Virus record (IMG/VR): IMGVR_UViG_3300039451_000027
Location: 1-64,000 of that record
Origin: a virus
Direction: 5' to 3' (one strand)
Length of the DNA: 64,000 nucleotides
In this document: piece by piece, positions 4,583 to 64,000 of the stretch
How the letters are laid out: each line of letters starts with the position of its first letter
Position numbering within the stretch: position 1 is the stretch's first letter
Position numbers and translations under genes: made by a program
The notes under the pieces: model-generated
Told to the model about the DNA's origin: nothing
Seen by the model: only the letters and a program-made list of their open reading frames with translations
Database searches by the model: none

Positions 4583-5027
4583 GGACCACGGAAATGTGCA
4601 CACAGGACGGGGCAGGACGGGGCGGGCGCGCCCACGGTGCATTCACCCAGTCCAGTCCCGTCCTCTCATTGGCGCTGCGGTCCTGGCCCATCAATTGGCA
4701 CTGCCGACGCAGCGCCCGGAGGCGCGGCGTCTCGGCGCTGACCAACTTACGACTGGTCGGGAATTTCAGCCGCCCGACTAACTGGCCTGACTTTGGGGGT
4801 TCCCAGTTTACCATATACGATTTTTTTTACCTCCTTGTAGCCACATATTTAATATTGGACCCTGGTAGTCAGGCATGGATGTCAGTGGGTTCTCGATTCC
4901 TGACTGGTCGGTGATTGGTCAGCTTTTTGATTTTATGGAAAATCAGAGAATTGGACTTTGGAGTGAACTGTGCGGAATTTGAGAGTTTGCGACGTCGGTG
5001 GATTTGATGATCAGAGAAATTGCCTCA

Positions 5028-5140: not shown

Positions 5141-5249
5141 GTATTTGCAGCTGGCCGGAAGAGGCTTTTGCGATCGGTCCCGCGATCGGGTAGGCCGCAA
5201 TCAAATCAAAATCGACTGCTCCTTGATCGCATTTTCACAGTTTACGAGC

Positions 5250-9607: not shown

Positions 9608-9658
9608 GATGCTCCCCTTTCTGGCTCCGGTGAGCGGGCATCCACCCTCCGGGACTCG

Positions 9659-10396: not shown

Positions 10397-11039
10397 CATA
10401 CTCGCCGATCCGCACCAGACCCGACGGCTCGGCAGCGCAAATTGATCCGGGGTCAACGCTCGTGCGGGATGCCGGAAAGTCTAAGCGCCTAATCCTCCGA
10501 TCGATCCCCATCGTGGAGGTTGCCTTTGCCGTCGGTAGTCCCGCGGCGCGATCCCGGTATTTCAGCCGGTGATGCTTGACCATCGTGCGGCTCGGAGGAG
10601 CCGCCTAGCTGCGCTGACGCCTAGAGTGTGCGCCAGCTACACCCGATTGGGTAATCGGGGCGCCAAGGTCATCCGCTGTCTGAGGACTGATCCATTTGTT
10701 TCTATCGGATCGCTTGCGCGTCGATACGGCAGACGGATTTATCTGCCTCACCTATATAGGCAGACTGATCGCGGAAAAGTTAAGCGGAAAATTTCGCTGT
10801 TCGACTGTTCAGCATCACTGCTGTACTGCCGTACATCTCTCCGCCAAACCCTCCCGGACAGTTTGCCCGAAGGTGCATCAGATGCGAGTTGCATCTGACG
10901 CTAATACAGGCACGGTTACTGCGAAAAAGTTAAGGGTATTTTTATTTTTCTCTGGACATTTTCGACTTAACTTTTTACAAAGACTGTACCGATACGTTAT
11001 CGGGACGCAAACGGGTATCGCCCAAAGGGAGCTAAAACG

Positions 11040-12093: not shown

Positions 12094-12208
12094 ATGGCAT
12101 TTCCTGCGAACAGGAGGCATCGCCAACGGGCGCGAGGCGCCAACGTATCAAACGTCAAGGTTTGCCTCGCGCCCGTTGGCGCTGCCTCCTGTTCGCAGGA
12201 AATGCCAT
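12094..12208. repeat. 45-bp-arm inverted repeat with 25-nt spacer
   Basis: Left arm 12094-12138 (ATGGCATTTCCTGCGAACAGGAGGCATCGCCAACGGGCGCGAGGC). Right arm 12164-12208 is its reverse complement with one mismatch. Confidence 0.9.
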
Positions 12209-12253
12209 GCCAAATTGGCATTTAGCTACTCGCGCGGTAGGATTCCCCGAAAT

Positions 12254-12269: not shown

Positions 12270-12532
12270 TGGGTGCCGCGCCTACATAGGGGAGGGGTCA
12301 AAAGAACAGTTGAATAGTCGTGCAGGTTGAAATTTGGATAGGGTGCCCCACCCTGTGTCAATACTTCCAGATTTGGGAATCTAGACTGACCATTACATTC
12401 AATCCTTGTTGACTATTTACGCTGAGTAATTATGGGGAGGGTCAAATTGCCCTACGGTAAAGCGTGCTGCGTGGAGGCGATTCTAAAATCCGGTAGCGAA
12501 ATTTCCGTGCACGCGCTTTTTCGGCAAAGAAT

Positions 12533-12580
12533 AATTCCGTGGAAAATTTCTCGAAATGGTAGTAGGGTATGTAGGGAGGG
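12533..12580 (+). promoter_or_regulatory. conserved promoter-like element, copy P1 (upstream of late region)
   Basis: AATTCCGTGGAAAATTTCTCGAAATGGTAGTAGGGTATGTAGGGAGGG. The 37-nt core is shared with the copies at 57928, 58100 and 62738. Confidence 0.55.
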
Positions 12581-12674
12581 CGCTGCGTGGAGGCTGGTTC
12601 AGGCCGATTGGAAATTTGGGCCAAAAGGCGTGTGCAATTAGTCTGATCGCAAAATCTTGCCCAGGAGTAACACT

Positions 12675-35899: not shown

Positions 35900-36454
35900 G
35901 TGGACAGCAAGATAAGTTTGGGGGATCGAGTCGATTTCACGCTCGAGGGCAACCCCTCCATGCTTGATGCGATCAAGCGTCTGAAGGGCCGATTTCGAAT
36001 CGAGCACACCGATCGGGATGGAAACCTGATCGGAGAGTATGAGATGGATAATGGAATCACTACGGGCGGGAAGAACTCACTCCTCAACACGTTCTTTAAC
36101 AATACCACGCCGCCAGTGACGTGGTACTTCGGGGTGGTCGACAATAGCGGCTTCTCGGCCTTCACCGATGCGACCGATACGATGTCGTCGCACAGCGGCT
36201 GGAACGAGTTCACGAACGTGAGTGGCAACCGCGTCGCCTGGGGCAACGGCTCGGCGAGCAGCGCGAGCATTACCAACGGCACGGCGGCGACAATCTCGAT
36301 CACTGGATCGGGTACGCTGAAGGGCATCTTCGTCACTACGGTGAATACCGTCGGCGGGACGACGGGCGTCCTCTGGAGCACGGCCGCTTTCTCGAGCACC
36401 GTGAACGTCAACAACGGCGACAACCTCAAGATCACGTACACGGTGAACTGCTAA
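35900..36454 (+). CDS. tail protein paralogous to C-terminus of 13902..14765
   Basis: GTG after GGAGG; shared NSLLNTF.. and ..NNGDNLKITYTVN motifs. Confidence 0.6.
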   Translation: MDSKISLGDRVDFTLEGNPSMLDAIKRLKGRFRIEHTDRDGNLIGEYEMDNGITTGGKNSLLNTFFNNTTPPVTWYFGVVDNSGFSAFTDATDTMSSHSGWNEFTNVSGNRVAWGNGSASSASITNGTAATISITGSGTLKGIFVTTVNTVGGTTGVLWSTAAFSSTVNVNNGDNLKITYTVNC

Positions 36455-46581: not shown

Positions 46582-46782
46582 ATGATCGACTGGAACCGAC
46601 TGATGGTCCTCGCGGGGGCCATCTTCCTAACCCTCAATGCGAAGTACCAGTGGTTCGCGCCGACCCAGGCAAGCGAGCTCGCAAGGAACGCGATCGAGTT
46701 TGCGCAGCTCGCGGTCGGTGCGTACCTCTTCTTCGCCGTCAAGCCGCCGCCAAAGATTGAGATCGGCGACGGCAAAGATTAA
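46582..46782 (+). CDS. holin-like two-TM protein (66 aa)
   Basis: GAGGAG SD; TM1 LMVLAGAIFLTLNA, TM2 FAQLAVGAYLFFAV; charged C-terminus. Confidence 0.45.
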   Translation: MIDWNRLMVLAGAIFLTLNAKYQWFAPTQASELARNAIEFAQLAVGAYLFFAVKPPPKIEIGDGKD

Positions 46783-46792
46783 GGAGACAACC

Positions 46793-48796
46793 GTGATTCG
46801 TAAATTTCTGTCCGTCCTGACGATAGTGGCCATCGCCTCCAGCTTCGTCCTCGCCGATCCAGCGAGCCCGACCAAGCGAGGAAAGGGCTACAAGCAGCCG
46901 TCCGCCGAGGTCCGGGCCAAGCTGCACGCTGAGGCGTTCAAGCGGCACGGCTTCAGGATGCACTACTTCGTCAAGAATGCGACGCCGCCAGCGAAATTCG
47001 ACTGTCGCGACATGGGCTGGGTGCCGCCAGTCGACGACCAGGGGCAGTGCGGCGACTGCTTCGGCGTCTCGACCTCCGACCTGTGCACGATGGCGTTCAT
47101 CAAGGCTGGCTACCAGAAGGCCGACGGGAGCTTCCACATATCCACGCAGTACGGCCTCGACTGCGGGGCTTACGATGGCGGGTGCAACGGCGGAAACGGC
47201 GAGCAGGTCGCAGACTGGATGAAGAAGACCGGCTTTCCTGCGGACAGGTACGTGGACGACAGCGGAAAGTCCGCGAGCGACTACCCGGCCTACACCGCGA
47301 GCGCCGGTCAGTGCCGCCTCCCCTCCGGGGCCAAGATGTGGAAGATCGCGGACTGGGGCTATGCTACCAGCGACCAAAGCGACCGCGCAGCGACCCCGGC
47401 CGAGATCAAGGCCGCCATGATGCAATACGGACCGCTGAGCATCGCGCTCGACGCGAGCGACGGATGCTTCGATGGTTCTGGCGACGTCTGCGAGGACATC
47501 GGCACCAACGTCGACCACGAGATTACGATGGTCGCCTGGGACGACAGCAAGGGCAAAGCTGGGGCCTTCTTAGTGCGCAATCAATGGAGCAAGGACTGGG
47601 GCGACCAGGGCTACAGGTGGATTGGCTACGGGACCTTCAAGAACGTGGTGAGCGTCTTCTGGATGACCGTTACTCCACAGCCCGCGCCCCCGCCTCCTCC
47701 TGGACCTACTCCAGGGACCGCGACCCTCACGAGCGTGACCGCGACATTCAGTGACGGCTCGACGCAGACGCTCGGAGGCACTGGACTGACCGCGGACCAG
47801 CTCAAGGCAATGACGATTCCGCAGCTGATGGACTTCATCAACGCCGGAAAGTCGAAGCCGCCGTGCCCCAAGCCGATGCCACCAGCTGAAGGTGGCATGT
47901 CCTACCTTGACCGAAAGATCGCGGAAGCCTACGCAGCGGAAACTGCGGAGGGCAAGGCTGAGAAGGCGATGGCAATCTCTCGGCAGTGCTGGGGGGCGGC
48001 CGCGAGGATCCTCCAGGACGATTGGACGAAGTCAATCGGCGAGTTCAGGAAGTTGGTCGACGGCTACTACGATCCTCTCCCCAAGCTGAAGGTCGCGATC
48101 GTATCCTACCTCGATGCCCTGATCGAGTCGGACCGCGAGTGGACCTCTGCCAGGCGATCCCTGGCGAGCACGGCGATGCAGTCGGTAGCTTCCGGAATCG
48201 ACAAGGCGGTAAAAGCGCCAGCCGTCGGAGAGCGAAAGAGTTGGAGTCAATTGATGCTTCCCAAAGGCGCCGAGAAGTACCAGTCCGCAGAGTTCACTCA
48301 GGCGGTCTCCCACGACCGGTCCAACGCCCCCGCGATTCGGAGGGTCCCGATCAAGGAGGTCGACAGAAAGTGGCAACAGTCCGGGGGCATGGACGGGGTC
48401 GCCGGCGTGACGAGCGATAAGTACAGGTCGCTCCCGCGAGCTCCCGAGGAGTTCGTGGGCAAGGTCGCGGTCACCTTCAAGCACGAGGGGAGGGAATACG
48501 AGCAGGAGGAGCTCGCGCTAAGGAGGCGATACGCCGACGGCAGCAGGTTCGACGACGTTCTCTCGTACAACGGCGTGGTCTTCGAGCACAGGAAGCGAGA
48601 GAAGGTGGGCGGGAAGTGGACCTCCGGAATAGTGTACTCAGACGCCGGAGCGAGGCCACCTGGCTACGAAGGGTTGACGACAACCTGCGCCGAGTGCCAC
48701 GAGAAGGCGGGTACCGGAATTTACGCAATGGGGCTCGCGCCGGGCGGCGATGGGGTCCTTAGCGATCCTCTTCCCTGGCGACTCTGGAAGAAGTGA
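46793..48796 (+). CDS. secreted papain-family (C1) cysteine peptidase fused to ~330-aa C-terminal region ending in CxxCH
   Basis: GTG after AAGGAG; signal peptide. DDQGQCGDCFG (Gln/Cys), VDHEITMVAWD (His), VRNQWSKDWGDQGY (Asn/Trp). Pro-rich linker; ..TTCAECHEKAG.. near the end. Confidence 0.8.
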   Translation: MIRKFLSVLTIVAIASSFVLADPASPTKRGKGYKQPSAEVRAKLHAEAFKRHGFRMHYFVKNATPPAKFDCRDMGWVPPVDDQGQCGDCFGVSTSDLCTMAFIKAGYQKADGSFHISTQYGLDCGAYDGGCNGGNGEQVADWMKKTGFPADRYVDDSGKSASDYPAYTASAGQCRLPSGAKMWKIADWGYATSDQSDRAATPAEIKAAMMQYGPLSIALDASDGCFDGSGDVCEDIGTNVDHEITMVAWDDSKGKAGAFLVRNQWSKDWGDQGYRWIGYGTFKNVVSVFWMTVTPQPAPPPPPGPTPGTATLTSVTATFSDGSTQTLGGTGLTADQLKAMTIPQLMDFINAGKSKPPCPKPMPPAEGGMSYLDRKIAEAYAAETAEGKAEKAMAISRQCWGAAARILQDDWTKSIGEFRKLVDGYYDPLPKLKVAIVSYLDALIESDREWTSARRSLASTAMQSVASGIDKAVKAPAVGERKSWSQLMLPKGAEKYQSAEFTQAVSHDRSNAPAIRRVPIKEVDRKWQQSGGMDGVAGVTSDKYRSLPRAPEEFVGKVAVTFKHEGREYEQEELALRRRYADGSRFDDVLSYNGVVFEHRKREKVGGKWTSGIVYSDAGARPPGYEGLTTTCAECHEKAGTGIYAMGLAPGGDGVLSDPLPWRLWKK

Positions 48797-49487: not shown

Positions 49488-50174
49488 ATGTTCGATGTGA
49501 GTATCGCCGAGAGGATGGCGAGGGCCTGTGATCTTGCCTACTGGGCGGATTCTGAGAAGGTGGTCAAGGACCTCAGCGTCGAGCAAGCTCGCGTAATCAG
49601 CATGGCTGGCCACGGCGCGCTGGTCGCCGAGTCAGAGGCTGAGACGATCGTGGCCTTTCGGGGGAGCGCCTCGATCCGGGACTGGATCGACGACGGCCAG
49701 TTCTACCTGGCGTCTATTCCGCCCTACTTCGGCAGGGTCCACGTGGGCTTCTCCCGAGTCCTGATCAGCCTGTATGCCGAGCTCTCGCCGTACCTCCAGC
49801 GGGGCAACGTCGCGATCACTGGACACAGCCTCGGCGCGGCGGTAGCCGTGCTCGCCTCCTGCTCCGTCCCGGTGCTGTCGAAGCCGCTCTACCTGTTCGG
49901 GTGCCCGAAGGTCGGGGATCGGCAGTTCGCGGACTCGTACCAGCACAGGGTATACCGCGTCATCAACGACCTCGACCCGGTGTGCCACGCCCCGTTCGAC
50001 TGGCTCTATCGGCACGTGGGCGAGGAGGTGTGGTTGCCGGAGCTCGGTCCGCGGAGCCTGTGGGGCAGGCTCAAGCGAGTGTGCTCCCAACTGCTGCGCG
50101 GACTGCCGAGGACGGTGATGACGGCGGTCGAGCACCACCTCATATCCAAGTACGTCGATGCCCTGTCAAGTTGA
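49488..50174 (+). CDS. class-3 lipase / alpha-beta hydrolase
   Basis: VAFRGSASIRDWIDD, VHVGF, ITGHSLGAAVA (nucleophile elbow), NDLDPVCHAP. Confidence 0.75.
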   Translation: MFDVSIAERMARACDLAYWADSEKVVKDLSVEQARVISMAGHGALVAESEAETIVAFRGSASIRDWIDDGQFYLASIPPYFGRVHVGFSRVLISLYAELSPYLQRGNVAITGHSLGAAVAVLASCSVPVLSKPLYLFGCPKVGDRQFADSYQHRVYRVINDLDPVCHAPFDWLYRHVGEEVWLPELGPRSLWGRLKRVCSQLLRGLPRTVMTAVEHHLISKYVDALSS

Positions 50175-52762: not shown

Positions 52763-53644
52763 TCATGAGTGATTCTTCTTGATCCAGAGGACCTCGGTGG
52801 AGTACCCGCGAGTGAGCTCGCGCTCCTTGCCGGCGAGGTTGTTCGTGTCGGTGAAGGCGAGCCCGAGGGCAGAGTTGTGGACCCTCCACTCGTACTTCTC
52901 ATCCCATGGGTATGAGTTATAGAGCTCGTTGTCGTAGCCGCTGAGGGCCACGAACCCCCTCAGGTATTGAATCCTCTCGAGCATCTCCTTGTGGTCTGCC
53001 TTGGTCATCTCGTGCATGTACATGCCCTTCGAGTACTCGTAGTAGGTCGGGTCCATGTACCATACCATGTCCTCGCAATCGAAGTCCTTGAGGCAGTGCC
53101 TCCAGTCGAGGTTCTCAACCTGGACGCACTTCATGCGATTGTGGACGCCGGCGAAGAGCTCGAGGTTCCTCACGAGCTTCGGGCCGATTTGCGAGAGCGT
53201 CCTCACGGACCGCCCGAAGTGGCGACCCTGCTGCCCGAAGCTCACGGCGGTCATGTAGTACCAGCGGGCCGCTCGCTCGACGTCGTCCTCGCAGTTCTCC
53301 CACGTCTCGCGGCACCAGATGAACTCCTCCCTCGAGTGGAGGATGAGCTGGAGGCGGTCCACGAGCTGGTGGATTTTCGCGGGGTCGCGGACGCATCGGT
53401 AGAAAGCGACCACTCCCGCGTACCGATCGTTGAAGACCTCGAGCTTGGATTCATGCCTCGCGAGCAGGACTGCCCCGGTCCCGCCGAATGGCTCGCAGTA
53501 GCCGACCCTGTACGGCAGGTGCGGCAGGATCTCCTTGAGCGAGCGGTCCTTGGCGCCGGGGTAACCAAACGGCGCTCGGACGTAGTCCTCCCGCACGGCG
53601 CCGCTATTCTCGAGGCCCATGAGCATTGCCAGCATGTCGCTCAT
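52763..53644 (-). CDS. DNA N6-adenine methyltransferase (D12/Dam class)
   Basis: YPGAK, EPFGGTGAV, FNDRY, YMDPTYY (DPPY variant). Confidence 0.85.
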   Translation of the reverse strand: MSDMLAMLMGLENSGAVREDYVRAPFGYPGAKDRSLKEILPHLPYRVGYCEPFGGTGAVLLARHESKLEVFNDRYAGVVAFYRCVRDPAKIHQLVDRLQLILHSREEFIWCRETWENCEDDVERAARWYYMTAVSFGQQGRHFGRSVRTLSQIGPKLVRNLELFAGVHNRMKCVQVENLDWRHCLKDFDCEDMVWYMDPTYYEYSKGMYMHEMTKADHKEMLERIQYLRGFVALSGYDNELYNSYPWDEKYEWRVHNSALGLAFTDTNNLAGKERELTRGYSTEVLWIKKNHS

Positions 53645-54830: not shown

Positions 54831-55175
54831 TCAATCAGTATACTGCTCCAGGTTCGGGTGCCAGCAGGAGGGGCAGACGTGGGCGCAGTCACCCTCGCCG
54901 CCCCGCATCGCGATCAGCAGTTCGCCCTCTATCCTGGACACCAGCTTGTCTCCGTACCTATAGATTCGGCGCTCCTTGCCGACGTCGATCAACTTCTCGC
55001 AGATGATGCAGCGAGGCATGCGATCATATAGGCGGACCAAGAACTCGCTGGACCAGTTCGGGTGCCGCCGCCTCATTCGGTCTAGGTGGCCGATGAAATC
55101 TAGGACGTCGGTGAACTCGTTGACCCTCGCGAGCTCGCAGAGCTGCTCGAGCTCCTCTTGCCTCAGATGCCGCAT
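54831..55175 (-). CDS. zinc-finger protein (114 aa)
   Basis: C-terminal part of track ORF 54831..55625, starting at MRHLRQEE. CIICEKL..CPSCWH. The start lies 10 nt inside the end of the primase gene. Confidence 0.5.
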   Translation of the reverse strand: MRHLRQEELEQLCELARVNEFTDVLDFIGHLDRMRRRHPNWSSEFLVRLYDRMPRCIICEKLIDVGKERRIYRYGDKLVSRIEGELLIAMRGGEGDCAHVCPSCWHPNLEQYTD

Positions 55176-57850
55176 TGCACGAGTCTCCCGTCCTTGAGAA
55201 CCAGCCTGAAGGCCTCTGGCTTCTCCTGGGTCCAGCTGATGTTCCCGATCCAGAATTGGCCGGTCGCCGGGAGGCGGCCCTTCGGAAACTTGGGCGGGAT
55301 CTCCTTGCCGACCCTGATCTTGGTCCACTCCTTCACGTAGTTCGGATCGAGCCACTCCTTGAAGCGGTCGTAGAACTCGGAGAACTGGATCATCTTCCCG
55401 AAGACCGCGTGGCAGTTTTCCTCTATGAACATCTCGAGGTACGTCTGATTTCCCCTCTCGGCCGCCAGCTTGTCCTCGGTTGTGATGACGGGGATGTTGA
55501 GCCTGTCGTGGGCGATCGGGAGCTCGAGCCCGAGGACCTCGGCAAGGAAGTCTGGCGCCTCGGCTTCGAGGAGCGGGACCAGAGTCCGCTTCGGAATGAT
55601 CTCCTTTAGCTCGGGCACGTAGCACATGGTGATCCTGGTGTCCCCCTGAAACACCGGGACCGCCAGGTGGCTGTTTGCAGTCTGGACGAAGTGCAGCGTG
55701 TTTGGGACGAGGTACGGCTGCCTCTGCTTCTTGTGGATCGGGAGCTGAATCGAAGTCACCCAGTCCTTGATGCGGTTGTAGGCCACCGCGTTCTTCCTCA
55801 TGTCGGTCTCCTCGATCACCGCGAGGATCGCGTGCTCCAGCTCCCCGTTGAAGTTGCTCTGCGAAGCCAGGGCGTTGTCGGCCCTCACGACCCCGTTCGT
55901 CATGAGGAGGTTAATCGCCTCGTGGAAGATCGACTTTCCGCTGTTCTGCGGCCCGTAGAGGAACAGGTACGGTAGCGGCTCCTTCGGAAATTTGAAGAGG
56001 CTCGAAATCCAGCACTTCAGGTAGTCGGCTCCCGTGAGCACGTCGTTCGCCCGAGCCCAGGCGTTGAGCTTCACCGCGTCGTCCAGTCCGCTCCCGATGT
56101 GCCTCAGGAGCTTCAGCCACGTGTCGTACTTCAGGGAGTCCCTACTGACGGTCGGCTTGAACCTGAGCTGCGCCGCCCCGCGATTCCACTGCCTGTCCTT
56201 CGGGTACTCGGACTCGAAGGGAAAGTTCACGATTCGCCAGCACCGGGCCACGGAGGAGCCGAGAATGTTCTGCGCGTCCTGCCCGTTGTGACCCCGCGAG
56301 AGCAGGTACGCCTTCACGTGTTGCAACGGCTCGTTGTGCCAGCTCCCGTCAGAATTGATCGACCAGCCGAGGTCCTCGCCGGACTCGGTAATCAGGTGGC
56401 GGACCTCGTCGTCGTACAGCACGATCTCCGGCTCGGTGGGCTCCGACATCTTGACCTCGAAGAGTCGAGACCACTTGTTGCGATTCGCGAGCCAGCCGTC
56501 CATCGGCCTGTCCTCGCTCTCGTGCGTCATCTCGACGTGCAGTCGACCGCTCTTGTGCTCCTTCAATCTGCACTTGCGATTGAGCATCCAGTTAGGCAGC
56601 GCGAGGTCCGCCCCGAGGAGCAGCGCCGCCTTCATGGCCTGCTCGGACTGCTGGAACCAGTAGCCGCCCGAGGGGTCCTCTATGCCCTCGTGCATCCGGC
56701 AGGCCGCCGCGAGGTCGGGCGGTCGATTGAGAAAGCAGCGAGTCCACCCGGCCCCGTCCTGCTGCCAGAGCGCGTGCTCCTGGCAGCCCGGACTGTACCT
56801 CCTGACTGCCCATGCCCCCTGCCTCATCGGGAAGGCGTAGCAGTTGACGTCGTGGCCCTTGTCGCGGCCCGTCGCCACGGTCTTGAAGGGCCCGCGCATC
56901 GAGAGCTCCTCGTGCGCCTCCTCGAGCAAGCTCGTGTGCGTCACGAGCATCCAGTGGTCTGCGTCCCACCACGATCCGCCGGGATACCTGAGGTCGAGCC
57001 ACTCGAGCAGACGCTTGTGCTCCTCGTCCAGGGCCACCCTCACGCGCTGGCCGCAGAGCTCCGAGAACTTGTCATCGATCTCGGGGTCCTGCTCCTCGAT
57101 GAACTTTGGAAGGCTCTTGGTCCTCCGCCCGGTGATGACTTTGACGTGGTCCCGCCAATTCGACGGTACGCAATCAAGCGTGCTCCCGGCCTTCAGGAGC
57201 TTGAGCCCATCAGTAGCCATCGCCATCTTTCGGTGCCACACCCACATGTTTCCGCCCGCGACGTCGACCTTGCTCGAGAAATCGAAGTTGACGAGACTCG
57301 ACATCTTCGACAAGATTGCGCGAGCTAGGGCCGCGTGCTCGTTGTGATTCACCGTGGCGACGGGGTCGATGAACACGTATACGTGCAGTCCCTTGCCGCC
57401 GGTGGATTGCCTGAGCGTCACCCACTCAATGTTGGACACCCTCTCCTTCAGTTGCTCGAGCTCCTCCGAGCTCATCTTCTTCTGGTGCTTGTCGGAGTGA
57501 CCCGATATGGCGTCGAAGTCGAAGGCCACCCACAGCGACAGCTTGGCCCTCCAGTTCCAACCCGTCATGCCGATACCCTCAGCATGCTCGGCCAAATCAA
57601 AATTGAGCTCCGAGTCGGTGTACTCCGGTTCCGTATTCGCCCTATACGGGATGCGAAAAGATTTCCAGACCTGTATGCCGTTCGTGTACCCGTGCCACTG
57701 CTTACCCTTGAAGTCGCCATCGACGCGGTCCCCGCCGTCCGCAGCGACGTTGACTTGGACCTCCATGTCGTGATTGTACAAGCTGGCCAAATCGGGATGG
57801 GTGCTCGCGAGCAAGAAATTTTTGATGACCTGCGTTTTCGTTGGTCTCAC
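55163..57850 (-). CDS. bifunctional AEP primase-polymerase / SF3 (D5-like) helicase
   Basis: VAFDFDA and GGKGLHVYVF (AEP motifs); LYGPQNSGKS (Walker A), ILAVIEE (Walker B); 895 aa; GTG start. Confidence 0.8.
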   Translation of the reverse strand: MRPTKTQVIKNFLLASTHPDLASLYNHDMEVQVNVAADGGDRVDGDFKGKQWHGYTNGIQVWKSFRIPYRANTEPEYTDSELNFDLAEHAEGIGMTGWNWRAKLSLWVAFDFDAISGHSDKHQKKMSSEELEQLKERVSNIEWVTLRQSTGGKGLHVYVFIDPVATVNHNEHAALARAILSKMSSLVNFDFSSKVDVAGGNMWVWHRKMAMATDGLKLLKAGSTLDCVPSNWRDHVKVITGRRTKSLPKFIEEQDPEIDDKFSELCGQRVRVALDEEHKRLLEWLDLRYPGGSWWDADHWMLVTHTSLLEEAHEELSMRGPFKTVATGRDKGHDVNCYAFPMRQGAWAVRRYSPGCQEHALWQQDGAGWTRCFLNRPPDLAAACRMHEGIEDPSGGYWFQQSEQAMKAALLLGADLALPNWMLNRKCRLKEHKSGRLHVEMTHESEDRPMDGWLANRNKWSRLFEVKMSEPTEPEIVLYDDEVRHLITESGEDLGWSINSDGSWHNEPLQHVKAYLLSRGHNGQDAQNILGSSVARCWRIVNFPFESEYPKDRQWNRGAAQLRFKPTVSRDSLKYDTWLKLLRHIGSGLDDAVKLNAWARANDVLTGADYLKCWISSLFKFPKEPLPYLFLYGPQNSGKSIFHEAINLLMTNGVVRADNALASQSNFNGELEHAILAVIEETDMRKNAVAYNRIKDWVTSIQLPIHKKQRQPYLVPNTLHFVQTANSHLAVPVFQGDTRITMCYVPELKEIIPKRTLVPLLEAEAPDFLAEVLGLELPIAHDRLNIPVITTEDKLAAERGNQTYLEMFIEENCHAVFGKMIQFSEFYDRFKEWLDPNYVKEWTKIRVGKEIPPKFPKGRLPATGQFWIGNISWTQEKPEAFRLVLKDGRLVQCGI

Positions 57851-57927
57851 GAGCTAGACTCCATAAGCCAGATTTGATTGGGCAATCGTTTTCACAATCA
57901 AATCAAATTTCAGAATACCGTGCCACA

Positions 57928-57977
57928 CTCTCTCCCTATATACCCTACTACCATTTCAAGAAATTTTCCGCAGAATT
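57928..57977 (-). promoter_or_regulatory. conserved promoter-like element, copy P2 (leftward, upstream of primase-helicase)
   Basis: Minus-strand reading: AATTCTGCGGAAAATTTCTTGAAATGGTAGTAGGGTATATAGGGAGAGAG. Confidence 0.55.
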
Positions 57978-58099
57978 GCGAAAACTGACTACTTCGTACT
58001 AACTGGGGGGTATCCCAGTTTGCCTATAGGGTTTGCCTCCTTCTAAAGTGCCTTCCATGTTTAATATTTGGCCCTATCAGTCAGGGTTACAGTCAGCGA

Positions 58100-58150
58100 A
58101 AATTCTGCGGAAAATTTCCCGAAATGGTAGTAGGGTAATGTGGAGAGAGA
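58100..58150 (+). promoter_or_regulatory. conserved promoter-like element, copy P3 (rightward, upstream of ParB-like gene)
   Basis: AATTCTGCGGAAAATTTCCCGAAATGGTAGTAGGGTAATGTGGAGAGAGAG. Confidence 0.55.
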
Positions 58151-58261
58151 GAGCGCGGCGTTCTGTTCTCAGGATTGATTTGATTGTGAAATTTCGATCG
58201 CGGAACCAGACGTCGGCTCGAGCAATGTTGCCACTAACGCGTTCTACAATGGGAGGAACTG

Positions 58262-59227
58262 ATGTCGCAGACGGTGTTGGCAAGTATTCCGCTATCGTCG
58301 ATCCGGGAGAATCCGGTCGCGCTGCGGAACGTCAATCGAATGAGCCCCACCTATAAGGAGCTCGTGGACAGCGTGAAGCGGTCGGGCATCCTCAACGCGA
58401 TCCTCGTCCGCGAGATCGTGGACCCCCGAACGAAGGTCGTGGTCTACGGTCTGATCGACGGACTGCACCGCTTCAGTGCCGCTCAGGACGCTGGGCTCAC
58501 GGAGATTCCGGCGCAGGTCCGCAGCATGGAGGATGCGGCGGTGCTGGAGGCGCAAGTCATCGCAAACGTCCAGAAGGTGGAGACTCGCCCGGTCGAGTAC
58601 TCGAAGCAACTCGTGAGAATCTTAGCCCAGAATCCTCTGCTGACCCTCGACGAGCTGTCGTCGCGGTTGGCAAAGTCTCCGACGTGGTTGAACGAGCGAC
58701 TCGGCCTCGTGAAGCTCGACGAGGCGATCGGCAAGCTAGTGGACGAGGGGCGGATCTGCCTGAGCAATGGCTACGCCATTGCGAAGCTCAGTGCAATCGC
58801 TCCTGAGGAGGTGTCGAACTACGTCGATCGAGCGATGGTGATGAGCCCCAACGAATTCGTCCCGACCATCACCTCGCGCGTCAAGGAGCTGAAGGAGCTG
58901 CGTCGCCAGGGACGCGACGCGACGCCAGCGACCTTCCAGCCCGTCGCCCACATCCGCAAGCTTGGCGAGCTCAAGGAGGAGATGGAGAATCCGAAGGTCG
59001 GTCCGGTCCTCATCAAGGAGCTGAACGTCAAGACGCCGAAGGAAGCCTTCGAGTTGGGCGTCAAGTGGGCGCTGCATATGGACCCGGCGAGCATCGAGCT
59101 TCAGAAGCAGAAGGACGCCGAGCGCAAGGCGAAGCTCGAGGCCGAGAAGCTGAAGCGGAAAGAGGAGAGGGAGAAGAAGTCCGAGGAGGAGGCGCGGAAG
59201 GCCGCTGCCGACGTGACGAAACTCTGA
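58262..59227 (+). CDS. ParB/Srx N-terminal-domain protein (ParB-like, 321 aa)
   Basis: ..ILVREIVD..VVYGLIDGLHRFSAAQDAGLTEIPAQV..; Lys/Glu-rich C-terminal tail. Confidence 0.75.
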   Translation: MSQTVLASIPLSSIRENPVALRNVNRMSPTYKELVDSVKRSGILNAILVREIVDPRTKVVVYGLIDGLHRFSAAQDAGLTEIPAQVRSMEDAAVLEAQVIANVQKVETRPVEYSKQLVRILAQNPLLTLDELSSRLAKSPTWLNERLGLVKLDEAIGKLVDEGRICLSNGYAIAKLSAIAPEEVSNYVDRAMVMSPNEFVPTITSRVKELKELRRQGRDATPATFQPVAHIRKLGELKEEMENPKVGPVLIKELNVKTPKEAFELGVKWALHMDPASIELQKQKDAERKAKLEAEKLKRKEEREKKSEEEARKAAADVTKL

Positions 59228-59253
59228 GATCGGGATACTCTGAGATCGGAATT

Positions 59254-59284
59254 GGAATCCCCGGTCACCGCGACCGGGGATTCC
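59254..59284 (+). terminator. 13-bp-stem hairpin (no U-tract)
   Basis: GGAATCCCCGGTC-ACCGC-GACCGGGGATTCC, preceded by the duplicated ACTCTGAGATCGG. Confidence 0.45.
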
Positions 59285-59309
59285 GGCACATCAAACATGG
59301 GAGATTCAC

Positions 59310-59975
59310 ATGAACGATTTGACACTACCGGAAGGTGTGGAGCTCACTCAGAGCAAGTATGCGGATGACTCGACGTTCGCGCAGATGGCGACCGCCGCCA
59401 GCTGGCTGCCGAGGCTCCAGGTATTCGGCGGAAACTCGAAGGAGGTCAAGCGCGGGACGTTCCCGATCGGGCACTACGGCCTGGTCCGCAAGAAGGACCA
59501 GATCGAGGACCTGACTCCGGCGGTGGACGTTCTGGTCCTCTCGTGGCGTCCGAAGGCCATGAGCGTCGGCGACGGGGAGGTGATCAACATGTTCGACCCG
59601 AGCAACCCGAAGTTCAAGGAGTTCGTCGAGCGGTCGAAGGAGCAGAATAGCGGGTGCTTCTGGGGTCCCGAATTCCTCGTGTGGATTCCAGGGGCGAGCA
59701 TCCCGTGCTTCGCGACCTTCCTCTTCGGGAGCATCAGCGCCCGCAACGAGGCCCCGAACATGAAGGCGCTGATTGGAAAGGCCGCGACCTGCAAGCTGAC
59801 CCTCCTCGAGAACAAGAAGGGGATGTGGCATAGCCCGGTCATCGTGCCGTGCTCGACGCCGCTCGACATGCCCAGCATGGACGAGCTCAGAGTCCAACTC
59901 GAAAAGTTCAACAACCCGCCCGAAAAGGAGATGGAGGCCGCGCCGGACGAGGCTGAAGAATCTCGCCCGCGCTGA
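59310..59975 (+). CDS. hypothetical protein with acidic C-terminal tail (221 aa)
   Basis: Track ORF. The ..EMEAAPDEAEESRPR tail is reminiscent of SSB-type proteins, but no motif was recognised. Confidence 0.6.
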   Translation: MNDLTLPEGVELTQSKYADDSTFAQMATAASWLPRLQVFGGNSKEVKRGTFPIGHYGLVRKKDQIEDLTPAVDVLVLSWRPKAMSVGDGEVINMFDPSNPKFKEFVERSKEQNSGCFWGPEFLVWIPGASIPCFATFLFGSISARNEAPNMKALIGKAATCKLTLLENKKGMWHSPVIVPCSTPLDMPSMDELRVQLEKFNNPPEKEMEAAPDEAEESRPR

Positions 59976-59987
59976 TTCAGTTCAGGA

Positions 59988-60015
59988 CCGGGAACTTCCG
60001 AATGGGAGTTCCCGG
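59988..60015 (+). terminator. 9-bp-stem hairpin
   Basis: CCGGGAACT-(10 nt)-AGTTCCCGG, immediately before the tRNA-like element. Confidence 0.45.
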
Positions 60016-60017
60016 AT

Positions 60018-60082
60018 GGGGGAGTAAGCTCAATTGGCAGAGCTGCATTTTGCGGTCGCAGGTTCGATTCCTGCCTTCTCCG
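60018..60082 (+). other. tRNA-like element lacking an anticodon arm (degenerate tRNA / possible att core)
   Basis: Acceptor GGGGGAG/CTTCTCC; D-arm AGCTC-AATTGGCA-GAGCT; T-arm GCAGG-TTCGATT-CCTGC. Only 13 nt (GCATTTTGCGGTC) stand where ~22 nt of anticodon arm + variable loop belong. Confidence 0.45.
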
Positions 60083-60108
60083 TTTAGTGGTCCGTACAGG
60101 AGTGTCGC

Positions 60109-60615
60109 GTGGTGGATATCGCGTTGGTGGCAAAGACTGTGCCCTGCGCCCCGGTGCTGCTGAAGCTCGCCAAAGGTTGCCTGGGCCGGAGTCTCAGCAA
60201 GCGATTGGACGAGCTGAGATTGCCGACCGACACGCTCTCGGCCTTCATCGTAATGCTTGGCGAACTGGAGCAGGAAGGGTGCAACCCGGCGGAGGTGCTC
60301 AGGGAGGCTGGTCCCCTGCTCAGGCACGCCTCCTATAGCTTCGCGATTCGCGGATCGTCAACCCTCCTTCACGAACTCGCCATTACGAGCGACCTGAAGA
60401 TTCTCGGGGACTCTGAATTCGCCGTCGTCTCCGGCAACTTGGAGGAGTGGAGGACAGCAATTATCAACGGTTCGACGGGTCGCGAGCTCTACGAGATCGC
60501 GCAGTTCTACACGAGGGTACTGAGCCTATTCGAGATTGACGGGCTCGGTCAACTCTGGGCTAACTATCAGAAGGTCTCGGGATCTGATTCAGTGATCAAG
60601 TTATCGCCCAAGTAA
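60109..60615 (+). CDS. hypothetical protein (168 aa)
   Basis: Track ORF; GTG start. Confidence 0.5.
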   Translation: MVDIALVAKTVPCAPVLLKLAKGCLGRSLSKRLDELRLPTDTLSAFIVMLGELEQEGCNPAEVLREAGPLLRHASYSFAIRGSSTLLHELAITSDLKILGDSEFAVVSGNLEEWRTAIINGSTGRELYEIAQFYTRVLSLFEIDGLGQLWANYQKVSGSDSVIKLSPK

Positions 60616-60627
60616 CATGGTGCCTAC

Positions 60628-62622
60628 ATGGACCAGACCAAGTGGACTGTAAAATTGAAGGCCGGCAAGTGGATGGTGCCCGTCGAGATCGAGAGGCAGG
60701 GGGATCGGCTCTGGCTCAAGTTCCCTTACAACCAGCACTTGCTCGACGAGGTTCGGGCGATGGACGGGTCGCGCTGGCATGGCTACGATGAGCCGAACCC
60801 TCGCAAGCAGTGGTCGATCAAGGACTCTTGCCGAAATCGGTTCCAGTTGGCCTACCTAGCTCACCCGAGCTCCAGGGACCCCGAGTGCCCGTACTACCGA
60901 TACGACCAGCCGATCAAGGAGTATCAGCTCAGGCGCAAGGAGGCAATGGGTCACCAGGTGGAGCTCGTGAGGCACGGCCTCACTTACCACTACGCTCTGT
61001 GGGCCGCTGACATGGGCGTCGGTAAGACGCTGGCGGCGATCGAGGTAATGGAGGGGTCGGGTCACGAGGACTGGATTTGGGTTGGACCCAGATCCGCGAT
61101 CCAGGCCGCCAAGCTCGAGTTCGAGATCTGGCGGTGCGGGGTGCGACCACGGGTGCACACCTTCGAGAGCTTGAAGAAGCTCGTCGCTGACTGGCCCCCA
61201 GGTCTGGGTGCTCCCCGGGGGCTGGTCATCGACGAGATAAGCCGCTGCAAGAATCCCACGGCCCAGCGGACGCAGGCGGTGCAGCACCTCGCCGACGCGA
61301 TTCGCGAGCGGTGGGGTGACGATGGCTACGTCATCGGGATGTCGGGCTCCCCGTCCCCCAAGTCCCCGGTCGATTGGTGGAGCCTGTGCGAGATCATCTG
61401 TCCTGGCTTTCTCAGGGAAGGCAACCCTGACAAGCTGAAGAAGCGGCTCGCCATAATCGAGGAGCGGCAAAGCGTGACGGGCGGGGGCTATCCGCACCTC
61501 GTCACGTGGCGGGACGACCCGAAGAAGTGCAACGTCTGCGGTGACGTGGAGGGCGCTCCGCAGCACGACCCCTCCGGGATGGTCGACGGGAGCAATCTCT
61601 ACCATCCGTTCACACCCTCGGTTGACGAGGTCTCCCTCCTCTACAAGAGGCTGCGTGGACTCGTGATCGTGAAGCTCAAGAAGGACTGCCTCGACCTGCC
61701 GCCGCTGCGGTACAGGGTGATCGAGTGCAAGCCGTCGACCTCCGTGCTCAATGCAGCCAGGGCCATCGCCGTGAGGGCTCCGTCCGCGATCCAGGCGCTG
61801 GTTCTCCTCCGCGAGCTAAGCGACGGGTTCCAGTATGCGGACGTCGAGCACGTCGAGGTACAGTGCGACAGGTGCCGAGGCCTCTGCCAAATCCGGGAGC
61901 CGTACGACGAGCTCTGTCCGGACAGCTTTCCCGAGCCCAGTGAAATTGAGGCCGGGCACCGCTGGGTGTATGACGAGACCGCCGACTCCCTCGTCCCGGG
62001 TCCGGCGATCAGGTTGGGCGAGCGAGTCGCCTCGTGCCCGACGTGCGGCGGAACCGGCAAGGTCATGAGCTATCGGCGAGAGGCTCAGCAGGTCGCCTGC
62101 CCGAAGGAGAACGCCCTCGTCGAGCTCCTCGACCAGCACGAGGAGGTGGGCCGCATAGTGATCTGCGCCGGATTCACCGGCTCCGTCGATCGGTGCGTCG
62201 CGATCTGCAAGAGGGCCGGTTGGGAGACCGTCCGGGTGGACGGTCGTGGTTGGCACTCCTCCATTCCGGGCGACGAGGTGTCGCTCCTAAAGGCCTTCCA
62301 GAGGGGGCAGGAGAAGTGGGCTCGTGTGGCGTTCGTGATGCAGCCGAGCTCGGGTGGCATGGGCATCACGCTCACCGCGAGCCCGTCCATCGTGTACTAC
62401 AGCAACGACTTCAACGCCGAGTCCCGTATACAGTCCGAGAATCGCGTGCACCGCCCAGGCATGGACTCGAACCTCGGCGCCACGATCTACGACTTGATCC
62501 ACCTGTCTAGCGACCTCCTCGTTCTGAACAACCTCAGGGCGAAGCGGCGACTCATGGACATGACGATGGGCCAGTTCCAGGAGGAGCTCAAGGTGGCGGA
62601 GATTGGGCCCCGGCAAGTTTGA
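60628..62622 (+). CDS. SNF2-family helicase with zinc-ribbon insert
   Basis: ADMGVGKTLAAI (motif I), LVIDEISRCKN (II), SENRVHRPG (VI); CDRCRGLC..CPTCGGTG insert. Confidence 0.85.
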   Translation: MDQTKWTVKLKAGKWMVPVEIERQGDRLWLKFPYNQHLLDEVRAMDGSRWHGYDEPNPRKQWSIKDSCRNRFQLAYLAHPSSRDPECPYYRYDQPIKEYQLRRKEAMGHQVELVRHGLTYHYALWAADMGVGKTLAAIEVMEGSGHEDWIWVGPRSAIQAAKLEFEIWRCGVRPRVHTFESLKKLVADWPPGLGAPRGLVIDEISRCKNPTAQRTQAVQHLADAIRERWGDDGYVIGMSGSPSPKSPVDWWSLCEIICPGFLREGNPDKLKKRLAIIEERQSVTGGGYPHLVTWRDDPKKCNVCGDVEGAPQHDPSGMVDGSNLYHPFTPSVDEVSLLYKRLRGLVIVKLKKDCLDLPPLRYRVIECKPSTSVLNAARAIAVRAPSAIQALVLLRELSDGFQYADVEHVEVQCDRCRGLCQIREPYDELCPDSFPEPSEIEAGHRWVYDETADSLVPGPAIRLGERVASCPTCGGTGKVMSYRREAQQVACPKENALVELLDQHEEVGRIVICAGFTGSVDRCVAICKRAGWETVRVDGRGWHSSIPGDEVSLLKAFQRGQEKWARVAFVMQPSSGGMGITLTASPSIVYYSNDFNAESRIQSENRVHRPGMDSNLGATIYDLIHLSSDLLVLNNLRAKRRLMDMTMGQFQEELKVAEIGPRQV

Positions 62623-62737
62623 TCGAGTCACGGAGTGTCTAACCAATCCCTTGCGCGTCAAGGGTGGCCGCTGAATGCGGAGTTCCGGGACTTGATCAGA
62701 TTGCGCAATCAAGTTAACGCAATCAAATCAGCGTAAA

Positions 62738-62786
62738 AATTCCGTGGAAAATTTCCCGAAATGGTAGTAGGGTATATAGGGGAGAG
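62738..62786 (+). promoter_or_regulatory. conserved promoter-like element, copy P4 (upstream of third ParB gene)
   Basis: AATTCCGTGGAAAATTTCCCGAAATGGTAGTAGGGTATATAGGGGAGAG. The palindrome GATTGCGCAATC lies ~30 nt upstream. Confidence 0.55.
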
Positions 62787-62849
62787 TGTAGCAGTCGCCG
62801 CGATTTGAGATTTGATTTTTGAATCCTGCTCCCAGTATGAGGAACTAAA

Positions 62850-63689
62850 ATGCCGCTTGCTGAATCAGAACTGAAGCCCTTCGAAGTCCCGATGAGCGAA
62901 ATTTTCAGCGACGAGGAATTCAACTGCCGGGGCAAAATTGCGCCTTACGACGTCATAGACCTCGTTCGCTCCATTGACCAGAACGGCTTGCAGCAGCCGA
63001 TCATCGTCCAACCGTTCGACAAGCACCCGCCGCACAAGTACCGGATCGTGAGCGGTCACCGAAGGCACGCGGCCTTCCGGGTTCTCGAGAGGCCGACCAT
63101 TCCGGCGATCATAAAGGACGGGCTCTCCGATCTCGACGCGAGGAAGTGGAACCTGGAGGAGAACCTCAAGCGTCAGAACCTCAACGTCCTCCAGGAGGCG
63201 AGGGCCATTGCACACTTCAAGAATGCTGGCTACACGCAGGAGGACCTGGCCAGGGAGCTCGGGGTGAGCCGTGGTTGGGCGCAGGTGAGGTTCATGACTC
63301 TCGAACTGCCCCCGGAGATTCAGGAGGAGGTGGCAGCCGGCTTCCTCACGCAGCAGCAGATCAAGGACATCTCCCACATGCCCCGGGAGGATCAGTTCGT
63401 CGCGGTCAAGAGGATCAAGCTCGCGCGGGAGAAGGGCGAGGCGCCCGTCAAGATCAGGAAGAAGAACAGGAATCCCCTCATCAAGAAGGTGAGGCTCAGG
63501 GATGAAATATTCGAGATGCAAGAGATGATTCAGTCGGTCATCGGAAATAACTTCGGCACGAGGATGCTCGCCTGGGCGGCCGGAGAGATATCTGATCTAG
63601 ACGCATTGCGAGACCTCCGGGAGCTCGCGAAGGAGAAGGGTGTACCGTATGAAATTCCTGCAGATATCCTGCAAGCAGCCAAATTGTAA
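62850..63689 (+). CDS. ParB-family protein (N-domain + HTH, 279 aa)
   Basis: ..YRIVSGHRRHAAFRVL.. (GxRR box), then the HTH GYTQEDLARELGVSRGWAQVRF. Confidence 0.85.
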   Translation: MPLAESELKPFEVPMSEIFSDEEFNCRGKIAPYDVIDLVRSIDQNGLQQPIIVQPFDKHPPHKYRIVSGHRRHAAFRVLERPTIPAIIKDGLSDLDARKWNLEENLKRQNLNVLQEARAIAHFKNAGYTQEDLARELGVSRGWAQVRFMTLELPPEIQEEVAAGFLTQQQIKDISHMPREDQFVAVKRIKLAREKGEAPVKIRKKNRNPLIKKVRLRDEIFEMQEMIQSVIGNNFGTRMLAWAAGEISDLDALRDLRELAKEKGVPYEIPADILQAAKL

Positions 63690-63696
63690 GGGGAGG

Positions 63697-63798
63697 ATGG
63701 TCTGTCAGCAGGGTAGACGCGGATATTACTACCGTTGCCCAGTATGCGGAAAGACGGTCAACAAGCGACCGAAGATCGCCCCACTATTGAGAGCTTGA
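63697..63798 (+). CDS. possible zinc-ribbon peptide (33 aa)
   Basis: MVCQQGRRGYYYRCPVCGKTVNKRP... The SD-like GGGGAGG abuts the ATG, which is poor spacing. Confidence 0.2.
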   Translation: MVCQQGRRGYYYRCPVCGKTVNKRPKIAPLLRA

Positions 63799-63799
63799 T

Positions 63800-64000
63800 A
63801 TGATGACGTTCCTCGACACGGAGACGTGCGGACTGCACGGGCCGGTTGTCCTCCTCCAGTGGGCGGAGGGCGACGGCGAGATTCACCTCCACGAGGTCTG
63901 GAGGAATTCGGCGGCTTCTACGATCTCGCTCATCGAGCGGATCGCGAGTGGCGAGGTCTGCGGATTCAACCTCGCCTTCGACTGGTTTCACCTGTGTCAA
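63800..64000 (+). CDS. DEDD 3'-5' exonuclease domain, probably N-terminus of a family-A DNA polymerase (3' end outside window)
   Basis: MMTFLDTETCGL (Exo I DxE) and GFNLAFDW (Exo II). The ORF is open to the window edge. Confidence 0.55.
   Translation, partial: MMTFLDTETCGLHGPVVLLQWAEGDGEIHLHEVWRNSAASTISLIERIASGEVCGFNLAFDWFHLCQ

Follow-up and report, generated by a model that had tools for sequence, protein, structure and literature searches.

In Bacillus phage SPO1, the phage sigma factors gp28 and gp33/34 read the middle and late promoter sets, and in the IncP plasmid RK2 the ParB-family CTPase KorB acts as a global repressor at OB sites. Here we describe a putative regulatory system with features of both in the virus record IMGVR_UViG_3300039451_000027 of IMG/VR, of which positions 1 to 64,000 (64,000 nt, hereafter the window) were analyzed. 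The window belongs to the genome (~97 kb, ~60% G+C) of a tailed phage. It contains a 37-nt element in four nearly identical copies, two of which face away from each other between the genes for a primase-helicase and a ParB-like protein. Judged by their sequence, these elements are the cores of sigma-70-family promoters heading operons, and overall they represent a real, fairly ordinary kind of phage gene switch, the layout of which recurs in dozens of related phages. Beyond a preliminary description of the element, the analysis provides a corrected promoter anatomy, a family-wide mirror-symmetric control region with a conserved box, and a conserved sigmaF-like gene. Together these results amount to a regulatory map, open to experimental testing, of an uncultured lineage of phages that has no isolated relative. 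It comprises a promoter class whose -35, -10 and start positions are defined, the conserved phage sigma factor that likely reads it, and two motifs proposed as operators, of which one is over-represented across the family.

Anatomy and family-wide footprint of the 37-nt promoters

The pattern AATTCYGYGGAAAATTTCYYGAAATGGTAGTAGGGTA matched the window four times with 0 mismatches, at the core positions listed in Table 1, and had no match in 100 shuffled controls (chance expectation 0). The preliminary description had reported four copies with four variable positions, a divergent pair with ~90-bp inverted arms, and a distance of 64–112 nt to the first gene of each module, and these claims hold. 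The core varies at 4 positions only, every change being a transition, and in the flanked alignment the copies are invariant from AATTC through GGGTA and then diverge quickly. The mirror arms of ~90 bp formed by copies 2 and 3 comprise an inner part (57941–57977 versus 58101–58137) with 95% complementarity across 37 nt and an outer part (57890–57937 versus 58144–58191) with 75% complementarity across 48 nt, extending to the GATTTGATTGTGAAA boxes, as detected by a repeat finder. Measured from the extended copies, the first start codon is 63–111 nt away, and all four copies are oriented toward a co-directional gene block. A TATATAGG-like box had also been assigned to the sequence 3' of the core; it is present in two of the four copies and missing in the other two, since copies 2 and 4 continue with TATAGGG(G)AGAG, copy 1 with TGTAGGGAGG and copy 3 with ATGTGGAGAGAG.

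Direct searches for the element elsewhere were negative. An exact 17-mer yielded five matches in IMG/VR, all of them chance matches in unrelated low-GC contigs, a 25-nt pattern had zero matches in the JGI metagenomes, and an nhmmer profile built from the four copies found nothing in the relatives described below, because their promoters are too diverged for a profile approach.

Within the core, the predicted -35 element (T/C)GGAAA is separated by 17 nt from the predicted -10 element TAGGGT, and the core extends from about -42 to -6. This spacing and a -10 of the T-A-n-n-n-T type are found in all four copies. Transcription is predicted to start at a G ~7 nt 3' of the -10, between the TAG and the GGAGAG of (A)TAGGGAGAG; TATATAGGGAGAG would represent the start-site region, and the TATATAGG box would cover -6 to +2. 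Earlier, TATATA had been taken for the -10, its spacing was considered unfit for a -35/-10 pair, and a non-canonical promoter geometry was proposed. The objection to the spacing is correct for TATATA, but it overlooks the canonically spaced pair located 5 nt upstream. The -10 is rather the invariant TAGGGT, which aligns with TATGAT/TAGGAT of the closest relative; spaced 17 nt from (T/C)GGAAA, it makes for an ordinary -35/-10 architecture.

The phage has no isolated relative: a megablast of window positions 55000–64000 against phages and plasmids gave zero matches, and the best match of the primase among 50,697 GenBank phage records was 30% identical over 15% of the protein. In IMG/VR, at least 123 contig stretches encode a primase of 45–58% identity, and 80 loci were retained from them as the set of relatives. 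Related loci are also held by metagenome-assembled genomes (MAGs) of Planctomycetota and Opitutales, with relatives placed within planctomycete MAG chromosomes; an integrase was not found in Pfam and PHROGs scans of a subset of the open reading frames (ORFs) of the window phage. The gene order ParB3 <- SNF2 <- two unknown genes <- ParB2, intergenic region, primase -> dNMP kinase -> Dam -> exonuclease is kept in the relatives. The closest relative is contig 3300045977_000216, with a primase 58% and a terminase 62% identical to those of the window phage.

In these relatives the ParB2/primase intergenic region (400–460 nt) has the same layout, with two outward-facing arms that are alike within a phage and unlike between phages, and in 76 of 90 related loci the divergent pair points toward the operons. 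Both arms were compared per base in 24 phages, with the alignment anchored at a -10 chosen by eye. Arm identity rose from ~0.55 (0.58 at -37) to 0.83 at -36 and 0.92–0.96 at -34 to -32 (0.83–0.96 across -36 to -30), dipped to 0.58–0.67 in the mid-spacer at -25 to -23, amounted to 0.83–1.0 at -20 to -7, and fell to 0.42 at -5 and mostly 0.2–0.4 past +2. The likeness between the arms of a phage is hence confined to -36 to -6: the constraint covers the core, is relaxed in the mid-spacer and ends at the flanks. This restricted likeness together with the spacer dip is the footprint of a sigma-70-family promoter and, with the orientation toward operons, bears out the earlier view of promoter-like elements heading modules. 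The consensus across phages reads T(-35)-R-G-A-M-A ... G-T(-12)-A(-11)-n-n-n-T(-7), with A-11 in 48/48, T-12 in 46/48 and T-7 in 34/48 arms. Of the four bases that vary among the window copies, those at -37, -24 and -23 fall in the loosest columns of the family, and that at -35 opens the -35 hexamer, at a position with T/C variation in the family as well.

Many arms of the relatives are plain -35/-10 promoters, among them TGGACA-17-TATAAT (locus L034), TGGACA-17-TATAGT (L020), TTAACT-17-TATAAT (L078) and TGGACA-17-TAGGTT (L035). The arm of L074, TGGAAA-18-TAGATA, has GTGGAAATTTC in common with the window. In the closest relative, the element likewise occurs four times, in a version of its own (..GAATGGAAAGTAKGAT; ..TTTCCCAGAATGGAAAGTAKGAT). 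The latter sequence aligns with TTTCCCGAAATGGTAGTAGGGT of the window, so that TATGAT/TAGGAT stands opposite TAGGGT. This relative also has a second back-to-back pair, between its ParB1-like operon and the late operon. This pair is analogous to that formed in the window by copy 1 and a fifth, diverged element aimed left at the inverted repeat 12062–12240. The positions of the four copies fit a joint control of replication, partition-like and late genes.

Candidate readers of the promoters

The window proteins are also encoded on the ENA contig ERZ27313774:k141_1948231 (97,525 nt), which continues to the right of the window with genes for DNA polymerase A, a class II ribonucleotide reductase and two sigma factors; counts for the whole genome cover 83 of ~97 kb. 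The two sigma genes are adjacent and located ~10.0–10.7 kb to the right of ParB-like gene 3 (locus L108, 20032–20688 and 20685 onward; the full second gene is in locus L110, 412–894). The first encodes a sigma factor of 218 aa: a profile of 11 homologues matches sigmaF (1l0o_C) with E 2e-22 over nearly the full length, and SigA, RpoS and RpoD with 1e-10 to 1e-13. Among the 48 DNA-polymerase loci of relatives, at least 42 encode a homologue, in each case directly after the same 151-aa gene. The following gene (160 aa) affiliates with the standard extracytoplasmic function (ECF) sigma factors (TIGR02937, 71 bits; the next model is a Rhodopirellula/Verrucomicrobium family). It was seen in this phage only and not detected in the relatives. 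Peptide patterns taken from the first late gene, the 218-aa sigma and the ECF sigma retrieved no relatives.

Another candidate, the gene at 11040–11831, was rejected as the sigma: its matches are weak (E 0.38 in PDB, 0.0034 in NCBIfam) and it has zero homologues in 5.8 billion proteins, and so cannot account for a family-wide architecture. Its product is a 263-aa orphan with a C-terminal helix-turn-helix (HTH) weakly like sigma region 4. Located 5' of this gene are another promoter-like site, TTAACT-N18-GATACG (~10968–10997), and GAAAAAGTTAAG repeats at 10773, 10923 and, inverted, 10968.

In the proposed two-step cascade, a host-type promoter (TTGACG-17-TACAAT) would first drive the sigmaF-like gene ~10 kb to the right of the window. 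RNA polymerase carrying this sigma would then read the 37-nt ("class B") promoters. The four copies and the diverged fifth head four operons (primase, ParB-2, ParB-3/DNA polymerase, packaging/structural), and the palindrome in the core and the orientation-specific GATTTGATT boxes would be superimposed as operators for phage DNA-binding proteins. We give this cascade with its operator layers an even chance. It is favoured because the family encodes a conserved sigma, the sigma gene has a separate host-type promoter, the copies within one genome agree even where the family information is low, e.g. inside the -10, and alternative sigma factors are stringent in promoter recognition. The agreement among the copies fits a co-evolving, stringent reader. 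The earlier suggestion of a phage sigma as a possible reader has thereby gained a serious candidate.

Several observations weigh against the cascade. The family consensus TRGAMA-17-TAnnnT is near that of the primary sigma, and many relatives are fully canonical (L034, L020, L078). The -10 elements known for sigmaF/G/B-type factors are unlike TAnnnT. Co-variation between phage sigma and promoter sequence was not demonstrated, the comparison being uninformative. The -10 anchor of the arm comparison was, as mentioned, picked by eye, and the evidence is drawn from 83 kb of the genome, with ~13.8 kb (contig positions 62421–76237) lying outside. The failure of an E. coli-type promoter matrix on the arms, described next, weakens a reading by the host sigma and is no proof of a phage sigma.

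As an alternative, the host primary sigma could read the same promoters, which would then be early or constitutive; their near-identity would result from recent duplication or gene conversion and an overlapping operator, and the phage sigmas would serve other, late promoters. We regard this as the main and a strong rival, though less likely than the cascade. In phages, replication genes are often among the early or middle genes that the host transcribes. The consensus T-R-G-A-M-A/17/T-A-n-n-n-T is primary-sigma-like, not least in its A-11 and T-7, and its proximity to TTGACA/TATAAT implies that the host sigma could read the promoters directly; near-consensus versions such as TGGACA-17-TATAAT and TTAACT-17-TATAAT occupy the same place in relatives. 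The window version, however, matches TTGACA-17-TATAAT at 4/6 and 3/6 positions, below the 9/12 taken as the minimum for a canonical primary-sigma promoter, and has no extended -10, while two other promoters of the same genome reach 9–10/12 with a TGn: TTGACG-17-(TGG)TACAAT before the operon with both sigma genes, and TTGCGT-17-(TGG)TATACT ~8.3 kb to the left of the window start. A consensus scan for canonical promoters detected none in 57700–58400 or 62400–62900. Scored with the E. coli-type matrix, the canonical promoter before the sigma gene had a z of 2.8–4.4 across the window phage and its close relatives (sigma-operon promoter, 4.4), versus z <=1 for the ParB2/primase arms of those same phages (-0.6 and -1.3 for the window arms); over all arms the mean z was 0.24, and the arms were not singled out. 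Host reading also leaves the idiosyncratic non-consensus bases shared by the copies of one genome to be accounted for. Moreover, the conserved phage sigma needs targets, and no other operon-heading repeat was identified in the 83 kb, where the GTGAAGAGTACGGC family (6852–9987) was not examined.

A further alternative, which we consider improbable, is a set of activator-dependent promoters of the T4 "middle" type. Here the host sigma would read TAGGGT only, and a phage protein bound to GGAAAATTTCC (~-29) would replace the -35 contact or act as a repressor. The MotA box of T4, centred at -30, is a precedent. The palindrome spans -34 to -24, with the variable YY at the centre of an ATTTC-YY-GAAAT dyad, and its occurrence at -47 to -37 of two canonical promoters and alone at 10786 resembles a protein-binding site rather than a -35. 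Against this stand the -35 block of the relatives, an ordinary hexamer at 17-nt spacing, the element of the closest relative, in which the palindrome is not conserved, and the fact that no MotA/AsiA-like protein was found.

Least probable is that the elements are not promoters of this kind but dispersed centromere-like or replication sites for ParB-like or initiator proteins, as suggested by three ParB-like genes without a ParA and by the dispersed centromere sites near promoters in N15-type phages, or promoters of a T7-like single-subunit polymerase, as suggested by TATAGGGAGA in copies 2 and 4, identical to -4 to +6 of T7 phi10. Against these readings, the orientation is always toward the adjacent operon, the footprint ends exactly at -36 and -6, the TATA/GGGAGA segment is the least conserved part of the repeat, and a single-subunit RNA polymerase was not found in 83 of ~97 kb.

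Other promoter types were rejected. For T7-like promoters (an invariant TATA|GG at -4 to +2 in a contiguous block of ~23 bp, and a cognate polymerase gene), positions -5 to -1 differ among the copies, and an RNA polymerase domain was not found in the window ORFs and the called L108/L109 genes. For ECF (group 4) promoters (AAC at -35, CGT at -10, 16–17 nt apart), the copies have neither a CGT near the -10 nor an AAC at the -35; in the closest relative, GTAAC-N16-GTAT leaves a weak resemblance. For sigma-54 promoters (GG at -24, GC at -12, 10 nt apart), TGGTAGTAGGGTAT has TA in place of GC.

Operator-like boxes, ParB proteins and the intergenic centre

The box GATTTGATT occurs in six exact copies in the window (5199(-), 57871(+), 57896(-), 58177(+), 62721(-) and 62809(+)), all near copies 2–4 or the iteron array, and in 10 copies in the 83 kb of the genome versus 0.33 expected. 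Related loci totalling 1.04 Mb contain 137 exact boxes; 103 of them lie at most 500 nt upstream of the primase, in two peaks corresponding to the two leaders, and GATTTGA is the top enriched 7-mer of the non-redundant intergenic regions (31/51 versus 4.5 expected). The box was found on 50 of 84 arms, sense-oriented in 48 of these 50 and without a partner in 28. Paired boxes are tightly spaced, with the order antisense-then-sense in 10/10 ParB2 leaders and sense-then-antisense in 8/10 primase leaders. In the ParB-2 leaders of relatives, all 10 paired arms carry AATCAAATC-N0-2-GATTTGATT palindromes, most arms having a single sense box; the box pairs of the window are spaced or bracketing only. 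Subclades have the variants GATGTGATGG, GGTTTGGTTT and GTTTAGTTTAA. One subclade (L023, L028, L030, L081) differs in its primase leader, where 2–4 exact DnaA boxes (TGTGGATAA; further ones if variants are counted) replace GATTTGATT, a hint that the primase-side boxes are tied to replication initiation; its ParB-2 leader retains the palindrome in a variant form, CCATCACATC..GATGTGATGG.

The palindrome GGAAAATTTCC is present at 5 window sites with at most one mismatch (0.63 expected). As GGAAA-A-TTTCC it overlaps the ATTTC-YY-GAAAT dyad, both lying within -34 to -18, and it occurs in some relatives. Another palindrome, GGGAAAATTTCCC (13 bp, 6-1-6), is located directly 5' of the -35 in two promoters. 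These enrichments support the earlier proposal that boxes and palindrome resemble regulator sites. The attribution of the GATTTGATT box to the 37-nt architecture, in contrast, does not stand: antisense and sense boxes 88–100 nt apart bracket copy 4 and also both canonical promoters of the genome, so the box, recurrent across the family, is not tied to the 37-nt class. A role at the DNA rather than the RNA level is favoured by the box at 5199, which lies beside the iterons past an apparent terminator hairpin, where transcription from a nearby promoter is improbable, and by leader folds no better than those of shuffled sequences (z -1.07 to +0.42; no Rfam families there). An RNA-structure reading of the leaders was rejected on account of these folds and the partnerless state of most boxes.

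Both GATTTGATT and GGAAAATTTCC are probably operators for phage DNA-binding proteins. The best candidate binders are three ParB-CTPase paralogues, the primase-helicase being a further candidate. ParB-2 matches Spo0J (1vz0, E 4e-15), ParB, Noc and KorB (8qa8, E 2.5e-5) as well as the Pfam domains ParB_N and HTH_ParB, and the CTP-binding GxxRxxA motif of the ParB fold is kept in all three paralogues (GLHRFSA, GHRRHAA, GNRRTRA). A comparison of the ParB-2 HTH with the box type revealed no decisive co-variation.

The centre between the divergent promoters may be origin-like. In most relatives it is likewise edged by (C)AGT(C/A)AGTCAG motifs, and ~115 nt of it are alignable with a paralogue in the left part of the window (mean column identity of the whole 258-column alignment, 72%). 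This paralogue and a GATTTGATT box adjoin an array of 8–10 tandem 15-nt iterons (GGGACTTGACGGATC; 5013–5177), each with a GATC; a Dam-type methylase gene is located at 52763–53644. The array looks origin- or centromere-like. In a more speculative view, which we think unlikely, the ~400-bp mirror region would combine an origin and a master switch: outward promoters read by the sigmaF-like factor would open the AT-rich origin beside the primase gene, and ParB-CTPases without a ParA would load at GATTTGATT/GGAAAATTTCC as KorB-like regulators of the replication, ParB and sigma operons, in a large, undescribed family of 50–110-kb phages, probably of Planctomycetota or Verrucomicrobiota.

Neighbouring features and comparison with described systems

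The coordinates of the elements and of the principal genes are compiled in Table 1. The window further encodes an SNF2 helicase, a Dam methylase, an exonuclease and a dUTPase.

Table 1 Predicted regulatory features and principal genes of the window
Feature	Position	Strand	Details
Copy 1	12533..12583	+	core 12533-12569; predicted -35 TGGAAA 12540-12545, -10 TAGGGT 12563-12568, start G ~12575; operon 12657, TerS-like, TerL (packaging/structural); no GATTTGATT box after the copy
Fifth, diverged promoter-like element	12480..12508	-	CGGAAA-TTTCGCTACCGGATTT-TAGAAT
Copy 2	57927..57977	-	core 57941-57977; predicted -35 CGGAAA 57965-57970, -10 TAGGGT 57942-57947, start ~57935; heads primase operon (primase plus downstream genes)
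Copy 3	58101..58151	+	core 58101-58137; predicted -35 CGGAAA 58108-58113, -10 TAGGGT 58131-58136, start ~58143; heads ParB-like gene 2 and following genes
Copy 4	62738..62788	+	core 62738-62774; predicted -35 TGGAAA 62745-62750, -10 TAGGGT 62768-62773, start ~62780; heads ParB-like gene 3 and DNA polymerase A gene past the window end
Centre between divergent promoters	57978..58100	.	AT-rich (TTTAATATTT), edged by inverted CTGACT...AGTCAG motifs
Paralogue of centre	4775..4890	+	alignable over ~115 nt; no flanking 37-nt promoter; iteron array and box after it
Primase leader boxes	57871..57910	-	sense: GATTTGATTTGATTGTGAAA (57891-57910), then inverted partner AATCAAATC (57871-57879)
ParB-2 leader box	58173..58192	+	GATTGATTTGATTGTGAAA, sense orientation
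Antisense boxes upstream of copy 4	62713..62729	-	AATCAAGTT..AATCAAATC, paired with sense box 88 nt off
ParB-3 leader box	62802..62823	+	GATTTGAGATTTGATTTTTGAA
Isolated GATTTGATT box	5197..5216	-	between iteron array and terminator-like hairpin of leftward operon
Solitary half-element	10786..10796	+	GGAAAATTTCG, no -10 after it
ParB-like gene 1	8531-9607	-	
TerS-like	13360-13902		
Terminase (TerL)	20003		
Portal	21765		
Major head protein	24962		
Tape measure	31855		
Primase/DUF5906 helicase	55163-57850	-	
ParB-like gene 2	58262-59227	+	
ParB-like gene 3	62850-63689	+	

Further features were observed in the left part of the window. The inverted repeat 12062–12240, with 77-nt arms and no good ORF, lies between gene 11040 and copy 1 and is faced by the diverged fifth promoter. 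As RNA it folds with -131.7 kcal/mol (z -15) into a near-perfect stem of ~45 bp; an RNA gene, a cruciform or packaging site and a palindrome of the telomere-resolution type are all conceivable. Just 3' of gene 11040, a (GCCCTG)6 microsatellite (11895–11930) directly follows a perfect hairpin of ~20 bp, a possible terminator. Two direct repeats of ~55 nt (GATTGSCGAT..TTTCGGCTCG.TG..GTATTGCG.TCG; 10283–10400) are located in an 830-nt non-coding stretch upstream of the leftward operon. The second repeat family, GTGAAGAGTACGGC..., occupies gaps between small leftward genes (6852–6886, 7231–7265, 7877–7900 and 8471–8505 on the plus strand, 9951–9987 in the opposite orientation). On the gene strand it ends in GCCGTACTCTTCAC, 15–20 nt before start codons, and it may constitute another promoter or regulatory class.

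Among the tail and late-region genes, 46637–48796 encodes a papain-family cysteine protease domain (E 2e-27), 36454–37494 a WD40-like beta-propeller with 138-nt DNA repeats, and 49488–50174 a class 3 lipase (E 2e-21). An ORF at 17335–18621 consists of ~12 tandem repeats of 60 nt (20 aa) and has no Pfam or PHROG matches. Between two genes of the ParB-2 operon, a tRNA-like Rfam match (RF00005, 38.4 bits, E 1.6e-4) is located at 60018–60082 (+); ARAGORN calls no tRNA there.

Of the described systems, T7-type promoters share with the 37-nt elements a contiguous conserved block just 5' of the start and, in copies 2 and 4, the segment TATAGGGAGA (T7 -4 to +6). Here, however, this segment varies among the copies (TGTAGGGAGG, ATGTGGAGAG), the footprint has two blocks with a spacer dip, and a polymerase gene was not found in the part of the genome covered. 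The divergent region resembles lambda ori and the gidA/mioC surroundings of E. coli oriC in its AT-rich centre between outward promoters, located beside the primase-helicase gene and with inverted repeats at the edges, as well as in the DnaA boxes (2–4 exact ones in the primase leader) of one relative subclade. Its difference from these origins is that its role is a predicted one, GC-skew and other origin tests being uninformative on a 64-kb window, and that a paralogous centre with iterons exists elsewhere (4775–5216).

Among the closest parallels is the SPO1 type, in which a phage sigma gene also lies behind a host-type promoter, and a few near-identical, phage-specific -35/-10 promoters head replication and morphogenesis operons. 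Unlike in SPO1, the sigma is sigmaF-like by profile, without sequence kinship to gp28 as far as tested, and is followed by a second, ECF-type sigma; a dependence of the 37-nt promoters on either of them is a prediction. The KorB-OB system of RK2 is another close counterpart. It differs in that a ParA/IncC or KorA partner was not found here, in that the commonest site, GATTTGATT, is asymmetric and orientation-specific, and in that a ~97-kb tailed-phage genome replaces the plasmid and the binding is predicted. Common to both are ParB-fold proteins with GxxRxxA and HTH, short conserved sites by promoters of replication and partition-type genes, including divergent ones, and, as with class I OB sites, a palindrome (GGGAAAATTTCCC) that directly precedes the -35 of two promoters. 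Should these motifs be bound by the ParB paralogues, transcriptional control of the KorB type by ParB CTPases would extend from plasmids to large tailed phages.

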